Assembly (NCBI RefSeq): GCF_000021865.1
Contig: NC_014034.1
Location: 750,001-782,000, forward strand
DNA: 32,000 nucleotides
Reading direction: 5' to 3'
Source: Rhodobacter capsulatus SB 1003
GTDB taxonomy: Bacteria; Pseudomonadota; Alphaproteobacteria; Rhodobacterales; Rhodobacteraceae
The notes beneath the pieces were generated by a model. The model had not been told where the DNA came from, made no database searches, and was given only the letters and a program-made list of their open reading frames with translations. Positions within the stretch are counted from its first letter, which is position 1. Each line of letters opens with the position of its first letter. The position numbers were made by a program, and so were the translations under genes. This document shows, one piece after another, positions 1,894-23,546 of the stretch.

Positions 1894-1932
1894 GGCCGCG
1901 ACGGTTCGTCACTGGACGTGCGCGCGCCCCGG

Positions 1933-1957
1933 GTCCACAACGGGGCGTGTCCACAAC
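1933..1957 (+). repeat. Tandem direct repeat GTCCACAAC x2 with a 16-bp period, just upstream of the tspO RBS; candidate regulator site
   Basis: Exact 9-mers at 1933-1941 and 1949-1957, each followed by (c)gg. They lie in the 72-nt crtB-tspO spacer and end 1 nt before the GGAGG at 1959-1963. Confidence 0.3.
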
Positions 1958-1965
1958 CGGAGGCC

Positions 1966-2451
1966 ATGATGAGCCTGACTCTCTTTGCCGTCTATTTCGT
2001 CGCCTGCGCCTGCGCGGGCGCGACCGGAGCGATCTTCAGCCCCGGCGCATGGTATGACAGCCTGAAGAAACCGAGCTGGGTGCCGCCGAACTGGCTGTTT
2101 CCCGTCGCCTGGTCCACGCTTTACATCCTGATGTCGATTTCGGCGGCGCGGGTATCCGGGCTGGCGATGGAAAACGAACTGGCCGTGCTGGGTCTGGCCT
2201 TCTGGGCGGTGCAGATCGCGGTCAACACGCTTTGGACGCCGATCTTCTTCGGCCTGCACCGGCTGGCGGGCGGGATGCTGGTTCTGGTGCTTTTGTGGCT
2301 GAGCGTCTTTGCCACCTGCGTCCTGTTCTGGAGCGTCGACTGGCTCTCGGGGCTGATGTTCGTGCCCTATGTGATCTGGGTGACGGTGGCCGGGGCGCTG
2401 AATTTCAGCGTCTGGCGGCTCAATCCGGGCGAAAAGCCGATCACGCTTTGA
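1966..2451 (+). CDS. tspO: Tryptophan-rich sensory protein TspO (CrtK), about 161 aa
   Basis: Five-TM Trp-rich protein with the TspO/MBR signatures KKPSWVPPNWLFPVAWSTLYILM and VPYVIWVTVAGALNF. GGAGG at 1959-1963 precedes ATG ATG at 1966/1969. The ORF-track start at 1918 is probably an over-extension. Confidence 0.9.
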   Translation: MMSLTLFAVYFVACACAGATGAIFSPGAWYDSLKKPSWVPPNWLFPVAWSTLYILMSISAARVSGLAMENELAVLGLAFWAVQIAVNTLWTPIFFGLHRLAGGMLVLVLLWLSVFATCVLFWSVDWLSGLMFVPYVIWVTVAGALNFSVWRLNPGEKPITL

Positions 2452-6089: not shown

Positions 6090-7271
6090 GTGCCGAAGGA
6101 CGACCACACGGGCGCGACGGCCGACCGGACCGCGCAGCCGACAGGAACGGGAAAGCAGCCGCTGGTTCCGGGCCAGCCCGGGGCGGCGCCGGTGCAGCCG
6201 GGGCGGGTGAATTTCTTCACCCGGATCGCGCTGTCGCAACGGCTGCATGAAATCTTCGAACGCCTGCCGCTGATGAACCGCGTCACCCGGCGCGAGGGCG
6301 AGGCGCTCTTCGACATCGTTTCGGGCTTCGTGCAAAGCCAGGTTCTCTTGGCGATCGTCGAATTCCGGGTGCTGCATATTCTGGCCGGGGCCTCTTGGCC
6401 CTTGCCGCAACTGGCCGAACGCACCGGCCTGGCCGAGGACCGGCTGGCGGTGCTGATGCAGGCCGCCGCCGCCTTGAAGCTGGTGAAATTCCGCCGCGGT
6501 CTGTGGCAGCTTGCCCCGCGTGGCGCCGCCTTCATCACCGTGCCAGGGCTCGAGGCGATGGTGCGCCATCACCCCGTCCTTTACCGCGATCTGGCCGATC
6601 CGGTGGCTTTTCTGAAAGGCGACATCGAACCCGAGCTGGCGGGCTTCTGGCCCTATGTCTTCGGGCCGCTGGCGCAGGAAGATGCGGGGCTCGCCGAGCG
6701 CTATTCGCAGCTGATGGCCGACAGCCAGCGCGTCGTGGCCGATGACACCTTGCGGCTTGTCGATCTGCGCGATGCCAAGCGGGTGATGGATGTGGGCGGC
6801 GGCACCGGGGCCTTCCTGCGCGTCGTGGCCAAGCTTTACCCCGAGCTGCCCTTGACGCTGTTCGACCTGCCGCATGTGCTGTCGGTGGCGGACCGCTTCA
6901 GCCCGAAGCTCGATTTCGCGCCGGGCAGCTTCCGCGACGATCCGATCCCGCAGGGCGCCGATGTCATCACTTTGGTGCGCGTGCTGTATGACCATCCTGA
7001 CAGCGTCGTCGAACCGCTTCTGGCCAAGGTGCATGCCGCCTTGCCGCCGGGCGGGCGTCTGATCATCTCGGAGGCGATGGCGGGGGGCGCAAAACCCGAC
7101 CGTGCCTGCGATGTCTATTTCGCCTTCTACACGATGGCGATGAGTTCGGGGCGCACGCGTTCCCCCGAAGAGATCAAGCAAATGCTTGAAAAAGCTGGGT
7201 TCACCAAGGTGTCGAAACCGCGGACCCTGCGCCCCTTCATCACCTCGGTGATCGAGGCCGAACGCGGCTGA
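6090..7271 (+). CDS. crtF: Hydroxyneurosporene O-methyltransferase CrtF (393 aa, GTG start)
   Basis: Class I SAM-methyltransferase motif [11 protein letters not shown] with an O-methyltransferase dimerisation-like N-terminal part. The GTG lies 2 nt after the crtE stop. Confidence 0.92.
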
Positions 7272-7338
7272 CACGGCTGCGTTCGGACCCGGCTTTGACC
7301 CGGGGGTCAGAAAGTCGCACATCCGTCTGTCGCAAAAG

Positions 7339-7356
7339 TGTCTAATCAAATTGACA
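7339..7356. promoter_or_regulatory. TGT-N12-ACA palindrome 1 of the bchC promoter; overlaps a perfect TTGACA -35 hexamer at 7351-7356
   Basis: TGTCTAATCAAATTGACA read directly from the sequence, 78 nt upstream of the bchC ATG. Confidence 0.85.
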
Positions 7357-7364
7357 GTCGGGCG

Positions 7365-7382
7365 TGTAAGTTCAATGATACA
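7365..7382. promoter_or_regulatory. TGT-N12-ACA palindrome 2 of the bchC promoter; covers the probable -10 region
   Basis: TGTAAGTTCAATGATACA read directly from the sequence. It starts 8 bp after palindrome 1. AATGAT at 7374-7379 lies 17 nt after the TTGACA. Confidence 0.85.
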
Positions 7383-7433
7383 CACAGGCGTGATCAGCCC
7401 GACTCTCCGGCCCGATCATACCGGGAGCAAGAA

Positions 7434-8378
7434 ATGGAAACGCAAGTCGTCATAATGTCCGGGCCCAAGGCCATCTCGACGGGCATCGCCGGTCTGACCG
7501 ACCCCGGGCCGGGGGACCTCGTCGTGGATATCGCCTATTCCGGCATTTCGACTGGCACCGAGAAATTGTTCTGGCTCGGCACCATGCCACCCTTCCCGGG
7601 CATGGGATATCCGCTTGTTCCCGGCTACGAAAGCTTCGGAGAGGTCGTTCAAGCCGCCCCCGACACCGGCTTCCGACCGGGCGATCACGTCTTCATTCCC
7701 GGCGCCAACTGCTTCACCGGCGGGTTGCGCGGGCTGTTCGGCGGGGCGTCGAAGCGCCTTGTCACGGCCGCCTCGCGCGTTTGTCGGCTGGATCCCGCCA
7801 TCGGCCCCGAGGGCGCGCTTCTGGCCCTTGCCGCCACCGCGCGGCATGCGCTGGCCGGGTTTGACAATGCTCTGCCGGATCTGATCGTCGGCCACGGCAC
7901 CCTCGGGCGCCTTCTGGCCCGTCTGACCCTGGCTGCCGGTGGCAAGCCGCCGATGGTCTGGGAAACCAATCCTGCCCGTCGCACGGGCGCGGTCGGCTAC
8001 GAGGTTCTGGACCCCGAAGCCGATCCCCGGCGCGACTACAAGGCCATCTATGACGCCTCGGGCGCGCCCGGTCTGATCGACCAGCTCGTCGGGCGTCTGG
8101 GCAAGGGCGGGGAACTGGTGCTGTGCGGCTTCTATACGGTGCCGGTCAGCTTCGCCTTTGTTCCCGCCTTCATGAAGGAAATGCGCCTGCGCATCGCCGC
8201 CGAATGGCAGCCGGCCGACCTTTCGGCCACGCGCGCGCTGATCGAAAGCGGGGCGCTCTCGCTGGATGGTCTCATCACGCATCGTCGCCCCGCGGCGGAG
8301 GCGGCCGAGGCCTATCAGACCGCTTTCGAAGACCCTGACTGCCTGAAGATGATCCTTGACTGGAAAGATGCAAAATAA
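7434..8378 (+). CDS. bchC: Bacteriochlorophyllide a dehydrogenase BchC (314 aa)
   Basis: Zn-dependent alcohol dehydrogenase-like fold ([13 protein letters not shown]; [12 protein letters not shown]). GGGAG at 7423-7427 precedes the ATG at 7434. The ORF-track start at 7338 lies inside the promoter palindromes. Confidence 0.95.
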
Positions 8379-9379
8379 TGACTGACGCACCCAACCTGAA
8401 GGGATTTGACGCCCGTCTGCGGGAAGAAGCCGCCGAAGAGCCCACGCTCGAAATCCCCGAGCAACCGCCGACCAAGAAGACGCAGATCATCGCGATCTAC
8501 GGCAAGGGCGGTTCGGGCAAGTCCTTCACGCTGGCCAACCTGTCCCACATGATGGCCGAAATGGGCAAGCGCGTGCTGCTCATTGGTTGCGACCCGAAAT
8601 CGGACACCACCTCGCTTCTGTTCGGCGGCAAGAACTGCCCGACGATCATCGAGACCGCGACGAAGAAGAAGCTTGCGGGCGAGGAAGTGAAAGTCGGCGA
8701 CGTCTGCTTCAAGTCGGGCGGCGTCTTCGCGATGGAACTGGGCGGGCCCGAGGTCGGCCGCGGCTGCGGTGGTCGCGGCATCATCCACGGGTTTGAACTG
8801 CTCGAAAAGCTCGGCTTCCACGACTGGGATTTCGACTTCGTGCTGCTCGATTTCCTGGGCGACGTGGTCTGCGGCGGCTTCGGCCTGCCGATCGCGCGGG
8901 ACATGGCGCAAAAGGTCATCGTGATCGGCTCGAACGACCTGCAGTCGCTTTACGTGGCGAACAACGTCTGCAACGCGGTCGAATATTTCCGCAAGCTTGG
9001 CGGCAATGTCGGCGTGGCGGGGATCGTCATCAACAAGGATGACGGCACCGGCGAGGCGCAGGCCTTTGCCCGCGAAGTGGGGATTCCGATCCTGGCCGCG
9101 ATCCCGGCCGATGAAGAGCTGCGCCGCAAGTCGGCCGCCTATCAGATCGTCGGCAGCCATGCGACGCCCTGGGGGAAACTCTTCGAGGAACTGGCGGGCA
9201 ATGTCGCCGATGCGCCGCCCTTGCGGCCGCGTCCGCTGTCGCCCGATGCGCTGCTGGCGCTGTTTGAAACCGACGAGGAAACCCGGGTCGTCGATCTGGT
9301 GCCCGCGACGGATGAAGACCTGCGTGGCTCGAATGCCGCGCCGAAGAAATCTCTGGAAGTGATCTACGACGATGTCTGA
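8378..9379 (+). CDS. bchX: Chlorophyllide a reductase iron protein BchX (333 aa)
   Basis: NifH/BchL-like P-loop (IAIYGKGGSGKSF) and cluster cysteines (RGCGGRGI; VVCGGFG). The start overlaps the bchC stop as TAATG. Confidence 0.96.
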   Translation: MTDAPNLKGFDARLREEAAEEPTLEIPEQPPTKKTQIIAIYGKGGSGKSFTLANLSHMMAEMGKRVLLIGCDPKSDTTSLLFGGKNCPTIIETATKKKLAGEEVKVGDVCFKSGGVFAMELGGPEVGRGCGGRGIIHGFELLEKLGFHDWDFDFVLLDFLGDVVCGGFGLPIARDMAQKVIVIGSNDLQSLYVANNVCNAVEYFRKLGGNVGVAGIVINKDDGTGEAQAFAREVGIPILAAIPADEELRRKSAAYQIVGSHATPWGKLFEELAGNVADAPPLRPRPLSPDALLALFETDEETRVVDLVPATDEDLRGSNAAPKKSLEVIYDDV

Positions 9380-15438: not shown

Positions 15439-17364
15439 ATGAGCGCCACGCCATCCCGCACTCCCCATCTTGACCGCGTGACCGGTCCTGCCGATCTCAA
15501 GGCGATGAGCATCGCCGATCTGACGGCGCTCGCCTCCGAAGTCCGGCGCGAGATCGTCGAAGTCGTCAGCCAGACCGGGGGGCATCTTGGCTCTTCGCTG
15601 GGCGTCGTCGAGCTGACGGTCGCGCTGCATGCGGTCTTCAATTCACCCGGCGACAAGCTGATCTGGGACGTGGGGCACCAATGCTATCCGCACAAGATCC
15701 TGACCGGCCGCCGCTCGCGCATGCTGACCCTGCGCCAGGCCGGGGGGATCTCGGGCTTTCCGAAACGCTCCGAGAGCCCGCATGACGCCTTTGGCGCGGG
15801 CCATTCCTCGACCTCGATCTCGGCCGCTCTGGGCTTTGCAGTCGGTCGGGAACTGGGCCAGCCGGTGGGTGACACCATCGCGATCATCGGCGACGGCTCG
15901 ATCACCGCGGGCATGGCCTATGAGGCGCTCAACCACGCCGGCCATCTGAAATCGCGGATGTTCGTGATTTTGAACGACAATGACATGTCGATCGCGCCGC
16001 CGGTGGGGGCGCTGCAGCATTATCTGAACACCATCGCCCGGCAGGCGCCCTTTGCGGCGCTCAAGGCCGCGGCCGAGGGGATCGAGATGCATCTGCCCGG
16101 CCCGGTGCGCGACGGCGCCCGACGCGCGCGGCAGATGGTGACCGCGATGCCCGGCGGCGCGACGCTGTTTGAAGAGCTCGGCTTCGACTATATCGGCCCG
16201 GTCGATGGCCATGACATGGCCGAACTGGTCGAAACCCTGCGCGTCACCCGCGCCCGCGCTTCGGGGCCGGTGCTGATCCATGTCTGCACCACCAAGGGCA
16301 AGGGCTATGCCCCCGCCGAGGGCGCCGAGGACAAGCTGCATGGCGTGTCGAAATTCGACATCGAGACCGGCAAGCAGAAGAAATCGATCCCGAATGCCCC
16401 GAACTACACCGCCGTCTTCGGCGAGCGTCTGACCGAGGAAGCCGCCCGCGATCAGGCGATCGTGGCGGTCACCGCGGCGATGCCCACCGGCACCGGTCTT
16501 GACATCATGCAAAAACGCTTTCCGCGCCGGGTGTTTGACGTCGGCATCGCGGAACAGCATGCGGTGACCTTTGCCGCGGGCATGGCGGCCGCCGGGCTGA
16601 AACCCTTCCTCGCGCTTTATTCCAGCTTCGTGCAGCGCGGCTATGACCAGCTCGTGCATGATGTCGCGCTGCAGAACCTGCCGGTGCGGCTGATGATCGA
16701 CCGCGCCGGGCTGGTGGGGCAGGACGGGGCGACCCATGCCGGGGCGTTCGACGTTTCCATGCTGGCGAACCTGCCGAACTTCACCGTGATGGCGGCCGCC
16801 GACGAGGCGGAGCTTTGCCACATGGTGGTGACGGCCGCGGCGCATGACAGCGGGCCGATTGCCTTGCGCTATCCGCGCGGCGAGGGGCGGGGCGTCGAGA
16901 TGCCCGAGCGCGGCGAAGTGCTGGAAATCGGCAAGGGCCGGGTCATGACCGAAGGCACCGAGGTCGCGATCCTGTCCTTTGGCGCGCATCTGGCGCAGGC
17001 GCTGAAGGCGGCCGAGATGCTGGAGGCCGAGGGGGTTTCGACCACCGTCGCCGATGCCCGCTTCTGCCGTCCGCTCGACACCGATCTGATCGACCGGCTG
17101 ATCGAGGGGCACGCGGCGCTGATCACGCTGGAACAGGGCGCGATGGGCGGTTTCGGCGCGATGGTGCTGCATTATCTGGCCCGCACCGGCCAGCTGGAAA
17201 AGGGCCGCGCCATCCGCACGATGACGCTGCCCGATTGCTACATCGACCACGGCTCGCCCGAGGAAATGTATGCCTGGGCCGGGCTGACGGCGAATGACAT
17301 CCGCGACACCGCGCTGGCGGCGGCCCGGCCGTCGAAATCGGTGCGGATCGTGCACAGCGCGTAA
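15439..17364 (+). CDS. dxs: 1-deoxy-D-xylulose-5-phosphate synthase (641 aa), the photosynthesis-cluster-linked copy
   Basis: Transketolase-like ThDP enzyme ([18 protein letters not shown]; [20 protein letters not shown]; [15 protein letters not shown]). GGAGG at 15426-15430 precedes the ATG at 15439. Confidence 0.95.
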
Positions 17365-17384
17365 ACCCGCGCGACACTGCAAAG

Positions 17385-17422
17385 ATGCACGGACAAGGCA
17401 TAAATTCGCCGTGTCCGTGCAT
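17385..17422 (+). terminator. Hairpin after dxs: perfect 11-bp arms atgcacggaca/tgtccgtgcat plus inner ggc/gcc, followed by tttgg
   Basis: Read directly from the sequence, 21 nt after the dxs stop. It could instead be an operator for the downstream ORF. Confidence 0.4.
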
Positions 17423-17447
17423 TTGGCTTGCCTGCGACAAGGTGACC

Positions 17448-18089
17448 ATGGCACAGTCGGACAGGATCCTGCGGTCGGGCAGGAGACGAAGTCGGACGAA
17501 TGCCTTGAAATTCCAACAGGTTTATTACGTGCTTGACCCGGATGACCGGATCCTCTGGATCGGTGGCGAATGGGACGAGTTCGCGCTGGCAAACGGCGGG
17601 TCGGGCGCAGGCTCGAACCGCGTGCTGGCAACGCCGCTTGCGCGGCATGTCACGGGCGAGACCACGCGCGCCGCGCTGGCGCGGATGATCGCCGCCGTGC
17701 GCGATGCCGGGGCGCCGCTGCGCATCGACTATCGCTGCGACAGCCCGCGGTTGTTGCGCCGTGTCCAGCTGACGATCCAGCCGATGAAGGACGATCGCGT
17801 GCTGATGGTGCATGATCTGCGCGATGCCCGCGCCTTCGAGGTCGCCCTGCCGCCATGGCATGCCGATGAAACGGCCGCGGCGCGGAAATGTTCTTTCTGC
17901 GGCGCGGTGCATCTGCCGGATGCGGGCTGGAATTTCGCCGAGGATCTGGGGGCGGATCATCCCGCCGGGGTCGCTTACGTCATCTGCCCCGGCTGCGCGG
18001 CGCAGATCGACGAGGGGGTGGCCAGCCTGCGCCAGCGCCGGGCGCCCAGCACGCCGATGACCGGCGGCTTCGGCCCGGGCGCAGGTTAG
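17448..18089 (+). CDS. Hypothetical protein (about 213 aa): PAS-like N-terminal domain plus C-terminal CxxC-N28-CxxC zinc-ribbon-like motif
   Basis: High GC3 and a protein-like composition, whereas the antisense ORF is Arg/Gly-rich junk. Motifs are YYVLDPDDRILWIGGEWDEFALANG and CSFCG...VICPGC. The start is chosen at the ATG after a weak AAGG and is uncertain. Confidence 0.6.
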   Translation: MAQSDRILRSGRRRSRTNALKFQQVYYVLDPDDRILWIGGEWDEFALANGGSGAGSNRVLATPLARHVTGETTRAALARMIAAVRDAGAPLRIDYRCDSPRLLRRVQLTIQPMKDDRVLMVHDLRDARAFEVALPPWHADETAAARKCSFCGAVHLPDAGWNFAEDLGADHPAGVAYVICPGCAAQIDEGVASLRQRRAPSTPMTGGFGPGAG

Positions 18090-18760
18090 ATCCGCCGCAG
18101 CGCCGCCTTGGCCACCAGCGGGCCGGTGGCGACACCTTCGGGCGATCCGCCCAGCGGTTCCTCGGTGATCGCCAGCACCGCCTCGGCCAGCATCGGCCGG
18201 ATCGCCTCGGGAATCGGCATCGCCGCCTTGCCCTGCCGCGGCATCACGCCCAGCGAAATCGGTTGTCCCGCGCCCGCGATCACCCACAATTCGAAATCAC
18301 GCCCCGGCGCGGGGGCATTCCCGCCCATCGAGACCCGCATCTCGCCGGTCTCGCTGTCGTAAAGCGCCGCCAGCCGCACCGTGCCATCGCTGGAGACCAT
18401 GTCCGAGACCAGCATCGGTCCGCGCGCGGGCAGGATCGGCTGCCCAAGCGTCAGAAGCGCCGCCAGAAACGCCACCGACAGCCCCGAGGCCCCGGCCAGC
18501 CAGCGCCACAGCCCGAAGCCCGCCTGCTCCGGCCGCCCGAAGACCCGGGTCTCGACCCCGGTCCAGACCCGCGCGGGCGGCGCCACCGGCATGACCTCGG
18601 CCGCCAGCGGATCGAAGCGGCTTTCCCAGCGCGCCACCTCGCGGGCGAAATCGGGATCGGTCGCGATCCGCCGCACCGCCGCCTGCCGTTCCGCCCCGGG
18701 CAGCGTGCCCAGCACATATTCCCCCGCCAGCGCGATATCGTCCTGTCGCATCCCGCTCAT
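18086..18760 (-). CDS. Anti-sigma factor, RskA (anti-sigma-K) family, single TM (about 224 aa)
   Basis: It has a cytoplasmic N-terminal domain, a TM segment (LWRWLAGASGLSVAFLAALLTLG) and an RskA-type C-terminal domain (FELWVIAG...PISLGVM...AITEEPLGGSPEGVATGPLVA). Its ATG overlaps the sigma stop as ATGA at 18757-18760. Confidence 0.82.
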   Translation of the reverse strand: MSGMRQDDIALAGEYVLGTLPGAERQAAVRRIATDPDFAREVARWESRFDPLAAEVMPVAPPARVWTGVETRVFGRPEQAGFGLWRWLAGASGLSVAFLAALLTLGQPILPARGPMLVSDMVSSDGTVRLAALYDSETGEMRVSMGGNAPAPGRDFELWVIAGAGQPISLGVMPRQGKAAMPIPEAIRPMLAEAVLAITEEPLGGSPEGVATGPLVAKAALRRI

Positions 18761-19302
18761 CCTTCCAGACACTCCCGCAGCGAGATCAGCGACCGCCGCA
18801 GCCAGGACCGCATCGTGTTGAGCGGCACGGCGAAACGCTCGGCCAGTTCCAGATAGCTTTCGCCCTCGACATAGGCACGCCGCACCGCCTCGGCCCGGGA
18901 AGCGTCAAGCCGCCCCAGACAGGCCTCGATCTGCCGCCCCTCCGAGGCGCGGATCGCCGCCGCTTCCGGGCCCGGGGCCTCGGCGGGCAGCTCCTCCAGC
19001 AGCTCGACGCCCACCTCGCCGCCCTTGCGCCGCCGCAGCCGGTCAAGGCACAGGTTGCGGGTGACCGCATTCAGCCAGGCGGCGGGACTCGCCACCTCGG
19101 GCACATAACGGTCGGCATTCATCCAGATCTTCACGAACACATCCTGCAAGGCATCCTCCGCTTCCCGGCGGTCCTTGAGGAGACGCAGGCAGAGGCCGAA
19201 AAGTTTCGCGCCCTGCACCGAATAAAGCCGCTCGAAAGCGGCACGGTCCGCCAGCGCCACCCGCGCCAGCATCTCGCCCAGATCCTGTCCCGCATCCGCC
19301 AT
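18757..19302 (-). CDS. ECF-type RNA polymerase sigma-70 factor (181 aa)
   Basis: Region 2 (EDALQDVFVKIWMNADRY) and region 4 HTH (SYLELAERFAVPLNTMRSWLRRSL) are both present. It is translationally coupled to the downstream anti-sigma gene. Confidence 0.9.
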   Translation of the reverse strand: MADAGQDLGEMLARVALADRAAFERLYSVQGAKLFGLCLRLLKDRREAEDALQDVFVKIWMNADRYVPEVASPAAWLNAVTRNLCLDRLRRRKGGEVGVELLEELPAEAPGPEAAAIRASEGRQIEACLGRLDASRAEAVRRAYVEGESYLELAERFAVPLNTMRSWLRRSLISLRECLEG

Positions 19303-19339
19303 CTGATCCGGTCGCCTTTCGCCATTTTGCTGTTCGGAC

Positions 19340-19367
19340 GCAACCTTTTGCCCGGCGCCCGCGTCTT
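19340..19367 (+). promoter_or_regulatory. Candidate ECF-type promoter GCAACC-N16-CGTCTT facing the TspO-like operon
   Basis: The AAC (19342-19344) and CGT (19362-19364) elements are 17 nt apart, in the divergent intergenic region about 100 nt upstream of the ATG at 19465. This is a motif-level match only. Confidence 0.25.
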
Positions 19368-19464
19368 GTCAAAACAAGAATGCCACGAGCCCCGCCGCAA
19401 TGACAATCGTCCCGGTTGCACTTCGCGGCGCGGACCCGCAGGATGGTTGAAAACGGAGACGAAG

Positions 19465-20172
19465 ATGGATCGCAGGTTGCTGGCGCCGCTGGTGCTGATC
19501 GTTGCGCTGACCTTTGCCGGCTCGCCCTTCCTGAGCGACGGCTTTCGCGGCTTCACGCCGTCGCAATTCCCGGTCGTGGCCGAGCGCTGGCCGGTGCAGC
19601 CGGTGGGCTGGGCGTTTTCGATCTGGGGGGCGATTTACCTTTGGCTGATCGCCGGGGCGGCTTACGGGCTGGTGCGGGCGTGGCGTGACCCCGCCTGGGC
19701 AGAGATGCGGCTGGCGCTGATCCTGTCGCTGGCGGTGGGCAGTTTCTGGATCACCGTGGCGAATTTGCAGCCGGTGCTGGCGACGGTGATGCTGATCTTC
19801 ATGGCGGCGACGGCGATTGCCGCCTTTCTGCGCGCGCCCGCCGGTCTGTGGGCGGCCGCGCCGGTCGGGCTTTATGCGGGCTGGGTGACGGCGGCCTGCG
19901 GCGTCGCCATCGCCATCACCCTGGGCGGGCAGGGGGTCTTGACCGGCCAGCAGGCGGCCTATCTGTCGCTGACGGGCGTCACCCTGACCGCGCTTCTGGT
20001 GGTCTGGCGCCGCCCCGAGGTGCCAAGCTATGCGTTCGGCGCGGGCTGGGCGCTCTTTGGGGTGATCGTGTCGAATGCCCGGGCGGGGGACTGGCCGGTG
20101 CTGGCTCTCGCCCTTGTCGGGCTTTTGCTTGTCGCGGCAACGCTTCTTTTGCGCAGGAGGAAACTGCAATGA
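19465..20172 (+). CDS. Polytopic membrane protein distantly related to TspO/MBR (235 aa)
   Basis: GGAGA at 19455-19459 precedes the ATG. I count about 7-8 hydrophobic segments. WPVQPVGWAFSIWGAIYLWL resembles tspO PPNWLFPVAWSTLYILM, and PVGLYAGWVTAACGVA resembles VPYVIWVTVAGALN, both from the canonical tspO in this same window. Confidence 0.6.
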   Translation: MDRRLLAPLVLIVALTFAGSPFLSDGFRGFTPSQFPVVAERWPVQPVGWAFSIWGAIYLWLIAGAAYGLVRAWRDPAWAEMRLALILSLAVGSFWITVANLQPVLATVMLIFMAATAIAAFLRAPAGLWAAAPVGLYAGWVTAACGVAIAITLGGQGVLTGQQAAYLSLTGVTLTALLVVWRRPEVPSYAFGAGWALFGVIVSNARAGDWPVLALALVGLLLVAATLLLRRRKLQ

Positions 20173-20720
20173 AACTCAAGCTGATGGCGGCCGCGGTGCT
20201 GACCGGGTTCGGGGCCTTTGCCGCCCCCGCCGCCCGCGCGACCGAGGCGGCGGCGCCGAGCTTCACCTTCGCCTCGATCGAGGGCGGGGTGATCGACACC
20301 GCCGCCTATCGCGGTCATCCGGTGCTGGTCGTGAACACCGCGTCGCTCTGCGGCTTCACCCCGCAGCTCGAAGGGCTGCAGGCGCTGCACAAGGCCTGGG
20401 GGCCGAAGGGGCTGATCGTGCTGGCCGTGCCCTCGGACGATTTCAAGCAGGAGCTGGAGAGCGGCAAGGAAGTCTCGGAATTCTGCACCCTGACCTATGG
20501 TCTGACCGTGCCGATGACCGACATCACCCCGGTTCTGGGCGAGGGCGCGCATCCGTTCTTCAAATGGCTGAAGGAGACGCAGGGCTTCGTGCCGCGCTGG
20601 AATTTCAACAAGGTGCTTCTGGATGGCGAGGGCCGGGTGGTCGCCACCTGGGGCTCGATGACGAAGCCCGAAAGCAGCGCGATCCGCGCCGCCTTCGAGC
20701 CGCTTTTGCCGGGGGCGTGA
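20169..20720 (+). CDS. Secreted glutathione peroxidase-family (Cys-type, BtuE-like) protein (183 aa)
   Basis: Signal peptide MKLKLMAAAVLTGFGAFAAPAARA. GPx motifs VNTASLCGFT and WNFNKVLL are present. The ATG overlaps the upstream stop as ATGA at 20169-20172. Confidence 0.88.
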   Translation: MKLKLMAAAVLTGFGAFAAPAARATEAAAPSFTFASIEGGVIDTAAYRGHPVLVVNTASLCGFTPQLEGLQALHKAWGPKGLIVLAVPSDDFKQELESGKEVSEFCTLTYGLTVPMTDITPVLGEGAHPFFKWLKETQGFVPRWNFNKVLLDGEGRVVATWGSMTKPESSAIRAAFEPLLPGA

Positions 20721-20729
20721 GTGGCGAAA

Positions 20730-20861
20730 ATGATCCGCAAGGGCGATCTGGCGCAAAAGATCTGCGCCGGATGCGGCCGCCCGTTCAGCTGGCGCCGGAA
20801 ATGGGCGCGGGACTGGGAAAACGTCCGGTTCTGCTCTGACCGCTGCCGCCGCGCGCGATGA
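20730..20861 (+). CDS. DUF2256-type small zinc-ribbon protein (43 aa); absent from the ORF track
   Basis: Hand translation gives [43 protein letters not shown]. This is the CxxC...CxxxC pattern with the WRRKWARDW core as I remember DUF2256. Its stop overlaps the photolyase ATG as ATGA at 20858-20861. An in-frame GTG at 20721 is an alternative start. Confidence 0.7.
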
Positions 20862-22417
20862 GGCTGGTTTTCATCCTTGGCGATCAGCTGACGCGGGGGA
20901 TCTCGTCCTTGGACGGGATCGAGCCCGCGCGCGATGTGGTGCTGATGGTCGAGGTCGCGGCCGAAGCGACCTATGTGCGGCACCACAAGCAGAAACTGGT
21001 TCTGGTCCTCTCGGCGATGCGGCATTTCGCGGAGGAGCTGCGGGCCGAGGGGATCAGGGTCGATTACGTGCGGCTGGACGATCCGGGCAATCTGCAGGAT
21101 TTCACCGGGGAACTCGCCCGGGCCGTGGCGCGGCATCGCCCCGAGGCGGTGGTGGTGACGCATCCGGGCGAATGGCGGGTGCTGGAGCTGATGCGGGGCT
21201 GGCCCGGGCGGATCGGTGTTCCGGTCGAGATCCGCGAGGATGACCGCTTCCTGTGTGCGCCCGCCGAATTCGCCCTGCTGACGGCGGCGGGCAAGACCGG
21301 GCGGATGGAATATTTCTACCGCGAGATGCGGCGGCGCACCGGGCTTTTGATGGAGGGGGCGAAACCCCTTGGCGGGAAATGGAATTTCGACGCCGAGAAC
21401 CGCAAGGCCCTGCCGCGCGGCCATCGGGCGCCGAGACGCAGACGGTTTGCCCCCGATGCGGTGACGGCCGAGGTGATGACGCTGGTCGAGGCGCGGTTTG
21501 GCGATCACTTCGGCAGGCTGGATCGTTTTGGCTGGCCGGTGACGCGCGCCGAGGCGCTGCAGGCGCTGGAGGATTTCCTGCGCGTCGGTCTGCCGTCGTT
21601 CGGGGATTGGCAGGATGCGATGCAGGCGGGCGAGGATTTCCTCTATCATGCGCTGATCGCGCCTGCGCTGAACATCGGGCTTCTGACCGCGCTTGAGGTC
21701 GCGGCGGCGGCGGAACGGGAATATCATGCGGGCCGGGCGCCCCTGAACGCGGTCGAGGGTTTTATCCGGCAGGTGATCGGCTGGCGCGAATTCGTCCGCG
21801 GGATTTATTGGACCGAAATGCCCGGCTATGCGGCGACGAATGCGCTGAATGCCACGCGGCCCTTGCCCGCCTTTTACTGGACCGGCGCGACACGGATGCG
21901 CTGTCTGGCCGAGGTGATCCGGGGCACGCGCGACAATGCCTATGCGCATCACATCCAGCGGCTGATGGTGACGGGGAATTTCGCGCTTCTGGCGGGGATC
22001 GCGCCCGCAGAGATCGAGGAATGGTATCTGGCGGTCTATGCCGATGCGTTTGAATGGGTGGAACTCCCGAATGTGCATGGGATGGTGGCCCATGCCGATG
22101 GCGGGCGGCTGGGGTCGAAACCCTATGCGGCGGCGGCGGCCTATATCGGGCGGATGTCGGATTACTGCCGCGGCTGCGGCCATGATGCCAAGGCGCGGAC
22201 CGGCAAGAACGCCTGTCCGATGAATTACCTGTACTGGAATTTCCTGATCACCCATCAGGACCGGTTCGGAAAGAATCCCCGGATGGCGCTGCCCTACAAG
22301 GCGCTGACTGCGATGGGGGAGGGGGAGCGGGCAGCGATCATGGCCGAGGCCGAGGCGTTCTTCGCGCGGATGGCGGCGCCCGAGGCGCCGTCGGGGCAGT
22401 TGTCGCTGGGGTGGTAG
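20858..22417 (+). CDS. FeS-BCP / CryPro family cryptochrome or (6-4) photolyase (CryB/PhrB-like, 519 aa)
   Basis: The N-terminus ([10 protein letters not shown]...[34 protein letters not shown]...[18 protein letters not shown]...[11 protein letters not shown]) closely resembles A. tumefaciens PhrB as I recall it. Four Cys are in the Fe-S cluster pattern (RMRCLAEV; [19 protein letters not shown], i.e. CxxC-N12-C). Confidence 0.9.
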
Positions 22418-22421
22418 TTTT

Positions 22422-22443
22422 GGCCGCGGCCGGTGACGCGGCC
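22422..22443 (+). terminator. Hairpin after the photolyase gene: 7-bp stem ggccgcg/cgcggcc with an 8-nt loop
   Basis: Read directly from the sequence, 5 nt after the stop and preceded by tttt. Weak evidence. Confidence 0.3.
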
Positions 22444-22467
22444 ATGCGAGACAGCGATTTTGGCGAC

Positions 22468-22637
22468 GCCGAGTGCTTCAGGCACTCGGCCAGCGCCCGC
22501 CCCGCCCCATGGCGGGCGCTTTCGAGCCGCCCGGGCCGGGCGCTGGCCTCTGTTGCACCTGGGATTGGCGGTCGTGTCGAGGCGTTGCGCTGCGGGCGGG
22601 GAAAGGCGCTGCCTTTCCTGTTCCGCCCGAAACCGGA
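22468..22637 (+). repeat. Structured GC-rich intergenic element, copy 2 (paired with 2514-2680)
   Basis: Same block order and orientation as copy 1. It fills the photolyase/ABC-permease convergent gap and ends at the permease stop codon (22638-22640). Confidence 0.7.
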
Positions 22638-23546
22638 TCAGCGGCCGCGAATGCGCGGATCAAGCGCGTCGCGCAACCCGTCGCCGATGTAGTTCACGCT
22701 GAGCACTGTCAGCGAAATCGCGATGCCGGGCAGGATCACCCGCCAGGGGTAAAGCTGGATCTGATCGACGGCATCGAACAGAAGCCGCCCCCAGGTCGGG
22801 AAATCGGGCGGGAAGCCGAGGCCCAGGAACGACAGCGCCGATTCCGTGATGATCGCCGAGGCGATGCCGAGCGTCGCCGAGACCATGATGGGCGACATCA
22901 CGTTGGGCAGGATGTGGCGCAGCACCAGCCGATGCGCGGGCGTGCCGATCGAGCGCGCCGCCAGCACGAATTCCCGTTCCTTCAGCGCCAGCACCTCGCC
23001 GCGCACGATGCGGGCGGTCTGCATCCAGGAAGTCGCGCCGATCGCGGTGACGATCAGCAGGAAGATCCCGCCCTCGGGCCCGAAGCCCTTCGAGAGCGGA
23101 TCGCGGAACAGCGTCACCATCAAAAGCAGCAGGGGAAGCAGCGGCAGCGCCAGGAAGAGGTCGGTGAGCCGCATCAGATGCCCGTCAAGGCGTTTGAAAT
23201 AGCCCGCCAGCACGCCGATCGTGGCGCCAAGGAAGATCGAGAGCGACATCGCGGTCAGTCCGACCGAGATCGAGACCTTGCCCCCCGCCATCATCCGCGC
23301 CAGGAGGTCCCGGCCCAGCTGGTCGGTGCCCAGCGGATGGGCAAGCGAGAAGCCCTTGTTGCGGGCGCGGAAATCGACATAGGTCGGGTCGATGTGCCAC
23401 ACGAGCGGCCCGATCAGGATCAGGCCGAGGATCGCGACAAAGATCGTCAGGCCGACCAGCGCGCCCTTGTGGGTCTTGAACTGGTCCCAGACATCCCACC
23501 ACTGGTTGCGCGGCGGGCGGATTTTGGCAGCGGTGGTGTCAGTCAT
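22638..23546 (-). CDS. ABC transporter permease, DppC/OppC-like (about 302 aa)
   Basis: BPD-transport inner-membrane component with the N-terminal OppC-type segment (WDVWDQFKTHKGALVGL). The ATG at 23546 overlaps the upstream permease stop by 8 nt. Confidence 0.9.
   Translation of the reverse strand: MTDTTAAKIRPPRNQWWDVWDQFKTHKGALVGLTIFVAILGLILIGPLVWHIDPTYVDFRARNKGFSLAHPLGTDQLGRDLLARMMAGGKVSISVGLTAMSLSIFLGATIGVLAGYFKRLDGHLMRLTDLFLALPLLPLLLLMVTLFRDPLSKGFGPEGGIFLLIVTAIGATSWMQTARIVRGEVLALKEREFVLAARSIGTPAHRLVLRHILPNVMSPIMVSATLGIASAIITESALSFLGLGFPPDFPTWGRLLFDAVDQIQLYPWRVILPGIAISLTVLSVNYIGDGLRDALDPRIRGR

Follow-up and report, generated by a model that had tools for sequence, protein, structure and literature searches.

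We analyzed a six-gene locus (rcc00698 to rcc00703) in a 32,000-nucleotide stretch of the Rhodobacter capsulatus SB 1003 genome (NC_014034.1, positions 750,001 to 782,000; hereafter the window, whose numbering is used for all coordinates that carry no locus identifier). The locus is a singlet-oxygen (light-plus-oxygen) stress module beside the photosynthesis genes; it was published in 2020, and only some of its details are new here. In the reading we favor, to which we assign a probability of about 0.72, the module consists of a SigK/RskA-type pair, an extracytoplasmic function (ECF) sigma factor and its anti-sigma factor, together with a four-gene operon that is most likely under the direct control of the pair and would be the remnant of a ufa-type operon. 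What the present analysis newly contributes is a family assignment for the regulators, the ufa-type derivation, a predicted promoter, further cases of adjacency to the photosynthesis cluster and an element inside the sigma gene.

Induction of the locus by singlet oxygen

The R. capsulatus locus RCAP_rcc00699/00698 and its bsaA1-cryB operon were described by Licht et al. (2020, Microorganisms 8:283; PMC7074977), who named rcc00699 'rpoE' and rcc00698 'chrR' and reported that the neighboring operon, encoding BsaA1, CryB and two hypothetical proteins (rcc00700 and rcc00702), is induced by singlet oxygen in its entirety. In their RNA-seq data, rcc00698-rcc00703 are up 9- to 15-fold ten minutes after singlet-oxygen stress. 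The log2 fold changes in their supplement are 3.42 for rcc00698, 3.70 for rcc00699, 3.33 for rcc00700, 3.86 for rcc00701, 3.20 for rcc00702 and 3.70 for rcc00703, and the protein level of rcc00701 (BsaA1) also rises. The same authors found the regulators to be more similar to SigK and RskA of Mycobacterium tuberculosis (34% and 25%) than to RpoE and ChrR (24% and 13%), pointed out the closeness of the locus to the photosynthesis cluster, called its genomic context unique among 155 genomes and reported no ChrR-type pair in R. capsulatus. Their account gives no promoter, and the coupling of relatives of the pair to a ufaD/ufaO-type operon is absent from it.

A preliminary description of this DNA, made from the letters alone, had proposed an envelope-sensing photo-oxidative or porphyrin stress module and had supposed that the arrangement had not been described as a unit. 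The claim of novelty fails because the locus, its SigK/RskA resemblance and its position at the photosynthesis cluster are all in Licht et al. (2020). In its photo-oxidative part the functional hypothesis is supported by the published induction of all six genes, whose log2 fold changes of 3.2-3.9 from rcc00698 to rcc00703 are those of a single unit; a sensing of the envelope or of porphyrins would be conjecture. For the finding as first written little changes, since the literature already covered the locus, how it is induced and how unusual its regulators are.

The sigma gene (18757-19302, minus strand; rcc00699) and the anti-sigma gene (18086-18760, or to 18772, minus strand; rcc00698) diverge from the four plus-strand genes across an intergenic region of 162 nt (19303-19464). 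The operon encodes a membrane protein of 235 residues (19465-20172; rcc00700), the glutathione peroxidase (GPx) BsaA1 (20169-20720; rcc00701), a DUF2256 protein of 43 residues (20730-20861; rcc00702) and the DPRP/FeS-BCP protein 'CryB' (20858-22417; rcc00703). Products of the window are matched exactly by the protein entries ADE84464, ADE84465, ADE84466 and ADE84468. At the sigma/anti-sigma junction, TCAT at 18757-18760 forms an ATGA overlap provided that the anti-sigma gene starts with the ATG at 18760; the alternative start is a GTG at 18772, and the lengths of the orthologues together with their own 4-nt overlaps favor the ATG. ATGA overlaps also join the membrane-protein gene to the GPx gene (20169-20172) and the DUF2256 gene to the DPRP gene (20858-20861). 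Between GPx and DUF2256 there is a gap of 9 nt counted from the ATG at 20730, or none from the GTG at 20721. No convincing terminator-like site was found within the four-gene stretch (two weak matches against 3.6 expected), and a scan of 17300-22800 found neither a sigma-70-like promoter nor a convincing terminator. The open reading frame (ORF) map, the raw sequence and the domain scans bear out the coordinates, the overlaps and the 162-nt divergence as previously drawn up.

A SigK/RskA-like sigma factor and anti-sigma factor

The sigma factor matches the Pfam models Sigma70_r2 (4e-16) and r4_2 (3e-9). Its best relative of solved structure is SigK of M. tuberculosis (4NQW_A, 1.2e-23), with RpoE of R. 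sphaeroides (2Q1Z_A) at 3.3e-13. Among NCBIfam models the SigK subfamily is matched at 3.1e-36, which is below the cut-off of that model, and the top model is PRK12514. Cys128 and Cys178 align with Cys133 and Cys183 of M. tuberculosis SigK, whose redox cysteine pair has been described as typical of ECF18/19.

In the anti-sigma factor, an N-terminal cytoplasmic anti-sigma domain is followed by one hydrophobic segment (LWRWLAGASGLSVAFLAALLTLG, read by eye from the sequence) and a periplasmic RskA_C domain (Pfam RskA_C 3.3e-19, 69.9 bits against a cut-off of 29.4); an NCBIfam anti-sigma model also matches the rcc00698 product (5.5e-26). Neither zf-HC2 nor Cupin_7 was matched in the Pfam scan, and Cys and His are both absent from the protein. 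Together with the RskA_C domain, this composition identifies an anti-sigma factor without the ChrR zinc motif (HxxxCxxC) and without the ChrR cupin. A search of PDB sequences with the anti-sigma factor matched neither RskA nor ChrR, nor anything else.

Judged by these matches, the pair is SigK/RskA-like and analogous to RpoE-ChrR in function only, in keeping with the RskA-type anti-sigma factor named in the preliminary description and with a sigma factor nearer to SigK than to RpoE. That description had also set the pair apart from RpoE-ChrR. The type of anti-sigma factor upholds the distinction, but R. capsulatus has no RpoE-ChrR system for the pair to coexist with; in the absence of a ChrR-type pair, the SigK/RskA-type pair is its functional stand-in there.

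The resemblance to each of the two known systems is partial. Like the locus analyzed here, SigK-RskA of M. tuberculosis combines an RskA_C anti-sigma factor, a conserved cysteine pair and overlapping genes; its usual neighbor and target, however, is the fasciclin protein Mpt70/83, whereas the R. capsulatus pair stands beside a photo-oxidative stress operon. No fasciclin match was found in the window or in 13 loci of the same clade (described below). RpoE-ChrR of R. sphaeroides shares with the R. capsulatus locus a divergent ECF pair at the head of an operon induced by singlet oxygen, but the anti-sigma factor ChrR is soluble, binds zinc and carries a cupin domain, whereas the R. capsulatus anti-sigma factor is membrane-bound and of the RskA type.

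The periplasmic domain of the anti-sigma factor (18086-18430, minus strand) contains seven Met in 112 residues. The Met positions in SDM, GEM, VSM, GVM and AAM are largely kept in eight aligned sequences of the clade, with single substitutions in Salipiger and in locus L084, and are mostly occupied by other residues in distant RskA homologues. The Met count of the domain is 5-7 in the clade and 0-6 in distant relatives, so that the separation is not clean. These conserved periplasmic methionines could be an oxidation-sensitive feature of the anti-sigma factor.

A predicted ECF-type promoter before the operon

A predicted ECF-type promoter of the operon lies at 19339-19365 on the plus strand (CGCAACC-N16-CGTC; position weight matrix [PWM] score 25.0). 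From the motif, transcription would be expected to start at about 19372, giving a leader of ~93 nt. Only two sites in the 32-kb window score above 12 with the PWM, each reaching ~25-26, and by shuffling the simple regular-expression pattern is expected 0.11 times per window.

The motif TG[C/A]AAC[C/T]-N15/16-CGT[C/A/T] occurs at the corresponding place before the operon in all 13 RskA-type loci. It also stands before the DUF2177 gene in seven of the eight loci that carry this gene (the regular expression missed L110) and before the CMAS gene in three (L001, L106 and L107). Six ChrR-type loci carry TGATCC-N16-CGTAA facing both ways; in the window, GCAACC-N16-CGTC is present in one direction of the divergent region only. 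The promoter of the RpoE-ChrR system (TGATCC-N16-CGTAA) and that of the R. capsulatus operon (GCAACC-N16-CGTC) thus differ in the −35 box. Because the type of motif tracks the type of regulator, this comparison is the strongest in silico reason to place the operon under the adjacent sigma factor. Upstream of the sigma gene itself, a PWM scan found no copy of the motif within 400 nt in 10 RskA-type loci.

A promoter-like element inside the sigma gene

A promoter-like element lies within the sigma ORF, ~95 nt into the gene and in the sense direction (19182-19208, minus strand; CGAAACT-N16-CGTC; PWM score 26.0). It is kept in 10 of the 13 clade loci and in distant SigK-like genes beside fasciclin genes. 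The element spans invariant rare codons ending in A or T (AAA, CTT or CTA, and CGT), and across six taxa 24 of 101 comparable sigma codons are invariant. It may be a promoter for a transcript of the anti-sigma gene alone. The fasciclin promoters that belong to the distant SigK-like genes speak against such a function, since their −35 box is a different one (GCATCC). Just upstream of the element there is a hairpin (19227-19242, minus strand) followed by TTTATT, which is not above chance.

Products of the operon

The rcc00703 product is matched by Pfam DPRP (6.9e-84) and over its full length by Agrobacterium tumefaciens PhrB, a 6-4 photolyase (4DJA, 1.1e-182), and R. sphaeroides CryB (3ZXS, 3.8e-177). 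Its four [4Fe-4S] cluster cysteines, in MRC...YCRGC...NAC, align with those of PhrB, and its assignment by sequence to the FeS-BCP/CryPro-type proteins of the cryptochrome-photolyase family is solid. Regulation differs between the two Rhodobacter species: in R. sphaeroides cryB is reported to be RpoHII-dependent and is barely induced (log2 fold change 0.52; Licht et al., 2020), whereas in R. capsulatus it is the last gene of an ECF-adjacent operon and is strongly induced.

GPx (Pfam GSHPx 6e-23, 80.9 bits against a cut-off of 27) has the active-site sequence NTASLCGFT, which is of the Cys and not the Sec type, and its N-terminus, read by eye, resembles a signal peptide. The rcc00702 product is a zinc-ribbon protein of the DUF2256 family (2.7e-21, 75.9 bits against a cut-off of 25).

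The membrane protein encoded by rcc00700 is harder to place. Its AlphaFold2 model (predicted local distance difference test score 95) has eight predicted helices. In a Foldseek search with this model, the TspO structure BcTSPO (4RYI) had the top probability (0.87) and the top target-normalized TM score (0.64) in the list, at a poor E-value of 1.6. A PxxWxFxxxWxxxY-like motif of TspO aligns with the protein, and Pfam TspO_MBR matches 3 of 33 family members, one of them (P0195) above threshold at 30 bits against 24. The rcc00700 product itself was not matched by TspO_MBR even at an E-value of 10, and NCBIfam gave no TspO match either. Alignment of the family with a 27-sequence TspO profile by hhalign (E 0.36 over 33 columns) was not significant, nor were BLASTP and hhalign comparisons of the protein or its family with the TspO encoded in the window, and an hmmsearch of the family profile against PDB sequences did not find TspO. 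Canonical TspO/MBR proteins have five helices, not eight. The description of rcc00700 as TspO-related is weakly supported, by a possible resemblance of fold and by one relative above the Pfam threshold, and not by a Pfam or profile match of its own; we regard the protein as a putative distant member of the TspO/MBR-like family, a weak assignment drawn from sequence and model. The R. sphaeroides homologue RSP_4024 was not induced (table in Licht et al., 2020). The window also contains the canonical tspO (crtK) of the carotenoid cluster (1918-2451, plus strand; Pfam TspO_MBR 1e-39), so that rcc00700 would be a second, very divergent relative.

Genomic neighborhood and probable origin of the operon

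We surveyed the membrane-protein family across 80 species-level Rhodobacterales loci. In 51 of the 80 (L001-L080, positions ~6700-8700) the gene lies immediately after serS and ahead of der and bamB. Placement in a stress operon is therefore a minority arrangement, and the family is not generally associated with stress genes.

In 13 loci from several genera, an RskA-type pair diverges from an operon of the form Amino_oxidase-DUF1365-CMAS-SDR-membrane protein, with or without GPx, or from shortened versions of it; the arrangement thus extends beyond strain SB 1003. The full version, with DUF2177 opposite, is found in Salipiger, three metagenomic lineages and a Paracoccaceae metagenome-assembled genome. 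A shorter form, in which Amino_oxidase alone precedes membrane protein-GPx, occurs in R. aestuarii, Rhodobacter sp. TJ_12, R. maris, R. lacus and a close metagenomic relative, and most of these five loci have DUF2256-DPRP joined to the operon. DUF2256 lies directly upstream of DPRP in R. aestuarii, Rhodobacter sp. TJ_12, R. lacus and Salipiger. In R. capsulatus even the Amino_oxidase gene has been lost, and its operon is the most reduced of the clade; a search of the 5' leader against R. aestuarii for a remnant of the lost amine-oxidase gene gave only noise.

The lost genes point to the origin of the operon. In R. sphaeroides, RSP1091 is UfaD and RSP1090 is UfaO, both encoded in a ChrR-controlled furan-fatty-acid operon, and by family name, which is not a test of orthology, the genes lost in R. 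capsulatus match the families of RSP_1091 (UfaD) and RSP_1090 (UfaO). The RSP_1091-1087 operon and the relatives of the R. capsulatus locus have the Amino_oxidase, DUF1365, CMAS and SDR families in common. In six other genera this operon, with the membrane-protein gene once more in last place, has at its head a sigma factor that is only ~32% identical. The partners of this sigma factor show a zinc motif and a cupin-like C-terminus in all six sequences, and the three that were checked by Pfam (L003, L006 and L015) match Cupin_7 at ~1e-11. With RskA-type heads in one set of genomes and ChrR-type heads in the other, a single operon has two unrelated types of regulator.

The operon of R. capsulatus would accordingly be a shrunken remnant of an operon of the ufaD-ufaO-cfa-SDR, or furan-fatty-acid (RSP_1091-1087), type. 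It is possible, though we hold this part of the history only tentatively, that RpoE-ChrR, which heads the ufa-type operon in other Rhodobacterales, was replaced by the SigK/RskA-type pair at the head of this singlet-oxygen/furan-fatty-acid operon in one lineage, that of Rhodobacter and Salipiger, and that the −35 boxes followed the change of regulator.

The position of the pair at the photosynthesis cluster is likewise shared. In the window the locus is flanked by pufL, pufM and dxs upstream and by oppC downstream. The pair directly follows dxs also in R. maris, R. lacus and a metagenomic relative (L105 1-5569, L108 1-5581 and L110 1-3566); pufLMX precedes dxs in R. maris and R. lacus, and the L110 contig starts within dxs. 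This shared pufLMX-dxs position contradicts the published uniqueness to R. capsulatus. The distance of about 700 bp beyond the cluster given in the preliminary description is right (~720 nt from dxs to the anti-sigma gene), and the ORF that occupies this gap, rcc00697 (17448-18089, plus strand), had gone unmentioned. This ORF converges on the anti-sigma gene, with the two stops overlapping by 4 nt, and has a C-terminal CxxC...CxxC pattern and no family match. A copy that is 78% identical lies at the equivalent place in the metagenome locus L110; none is present in R. maris or R. lacus.

A metagenome scan with the anti-sigma factor added only two further loci of the clade; the others were canonical fasciclin-linked pairs. 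A fasciclin gene lies beside nine more distant RskA-type pairs. Genes with a fasciclin domain (L007 2021-2620, L015 8798-9325, L020 8799-9290, L090 8909-9367 and similar loci) come directly after distant RskA-type pairs and also stand beside three ChrR-type singlet-oxygen loci. Fasciclin neighbors on both sides are hints of a gene pool common to the two regulons.

Model and alternative explanations

In the proposed mechanism, the single-pass membrane anti-sigma factor would hold the sigma factor in unstressed cells, as expected from its family. Photo-oxidative stress would inactivate the anti-sigma factor, probably by acting on the periplasmic or membrane part of the protein and by way of regulated proteolysis, and the freed sigma factor would use the predicted promoter at 19339-19365 to make one mRNA for the four genes. 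This mRNA would supply the TspO-like membrane protein, a periplasmic GPx, the DUF2256 protein and the FeS-BCP photolyase/cryptochrome. Several observations weigh against direct control of this kind. A single attempt to disrupt rcc00699 could not be confirmed; the sigma gene has no upstream copy of the motif, though its transcript rises with stress; the reported RpoHII dependence of R. sphaeroides cryB makes a second type of promoter possible; and in Salipiger DUF2256-DPRP lies apart from the operon and lacks the motif.

The absence of a motif upstream of the sigma gene would suit a scheme in which RpoHII/RpoHI or another regulator induces the four genes and the neighboring ECF pair is not their direct regulator. 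We consider this unlikely, because the divergent arrangement is kept in 13 loci from several genera and a conserved ECF-type motif, in the right place, varies in step with the sigma factor type. Another ECF sigma factor, such as one of the general-stress EcfG type, could also read GAAAC/GCAAC-N16-CGT and drive both the operon and the internal site: the motif resembles generic ECF promoters, and the internal element is also present in distant SigK-like genes whose fasciclin promoters have the −35 box GCATCC. Such an assignment seems very unlikely to us, since the motif precedes the operon only in loci with an RskA-type pair and since TGAAAC-N16-CGTG is the motif at fasciclin genes that adjoin the closer SigK-like subgroup.

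The naming of Licht et al. (2020) prefers yet another relationship, in which the pair are true RpoE-ChrR orthologues, strongly diverged and remodeled in place. The reported Phyre2 confidences of 99.9% and 99.4%, an induction by singlet oxygen like that of rpoE-chrR (both from Licht et al., 2020) and the place of the pair at the head of the same kind of operon in relatives all agree with such an orthology. Features of the proteins, the promoter and the relatives make it highly improbable. The anti-sigma factor has RskA_C and a membrane segment in place of the zinc motif and ChrR cupin, which the genuine ChrR-type partners in six genera possess; SigK, not RpoE, is the nearer relative of the sigma factor, which retains the SigK cysteine pair; the −35 box of the promoter differs; and the more distant relatives of the pair adjoin fasciclin genes, as SigK-RskA does.

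Implications

The comparison answers a question left open by Licht et al. (2020), whether the regulators arose by remodeling or by acquisition, in that a pair of the SigK/RskA clade heads the ancestral operon in relatives of R. capsulatus. It also corrects the published claim that the position at the photosynthesis cluster is unique. If the pair did replace RpoE-ChrR, photo-oxidative damage to the membrane or periplasm would readily qualify as a signal of the SigK-RskA family. In M. kansasii, light induces the putative SigK targets mpk70/83 and a photolyase-tspO locus; a general link between SigK-RskA and light stress, drawn by analogy from this species, would be speculation. If the element inside the sigma gene is a promoter, sigma genes of the SigK-like family may hold an internal promoter for anti-sigma-only transcripts, which would provide negative feedback. 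With a known inducer and a concrete promoter candidate, the R. capsulatus locus is a tractable and non-pathogenic system for what RskA-type anti-sigma factors sense.

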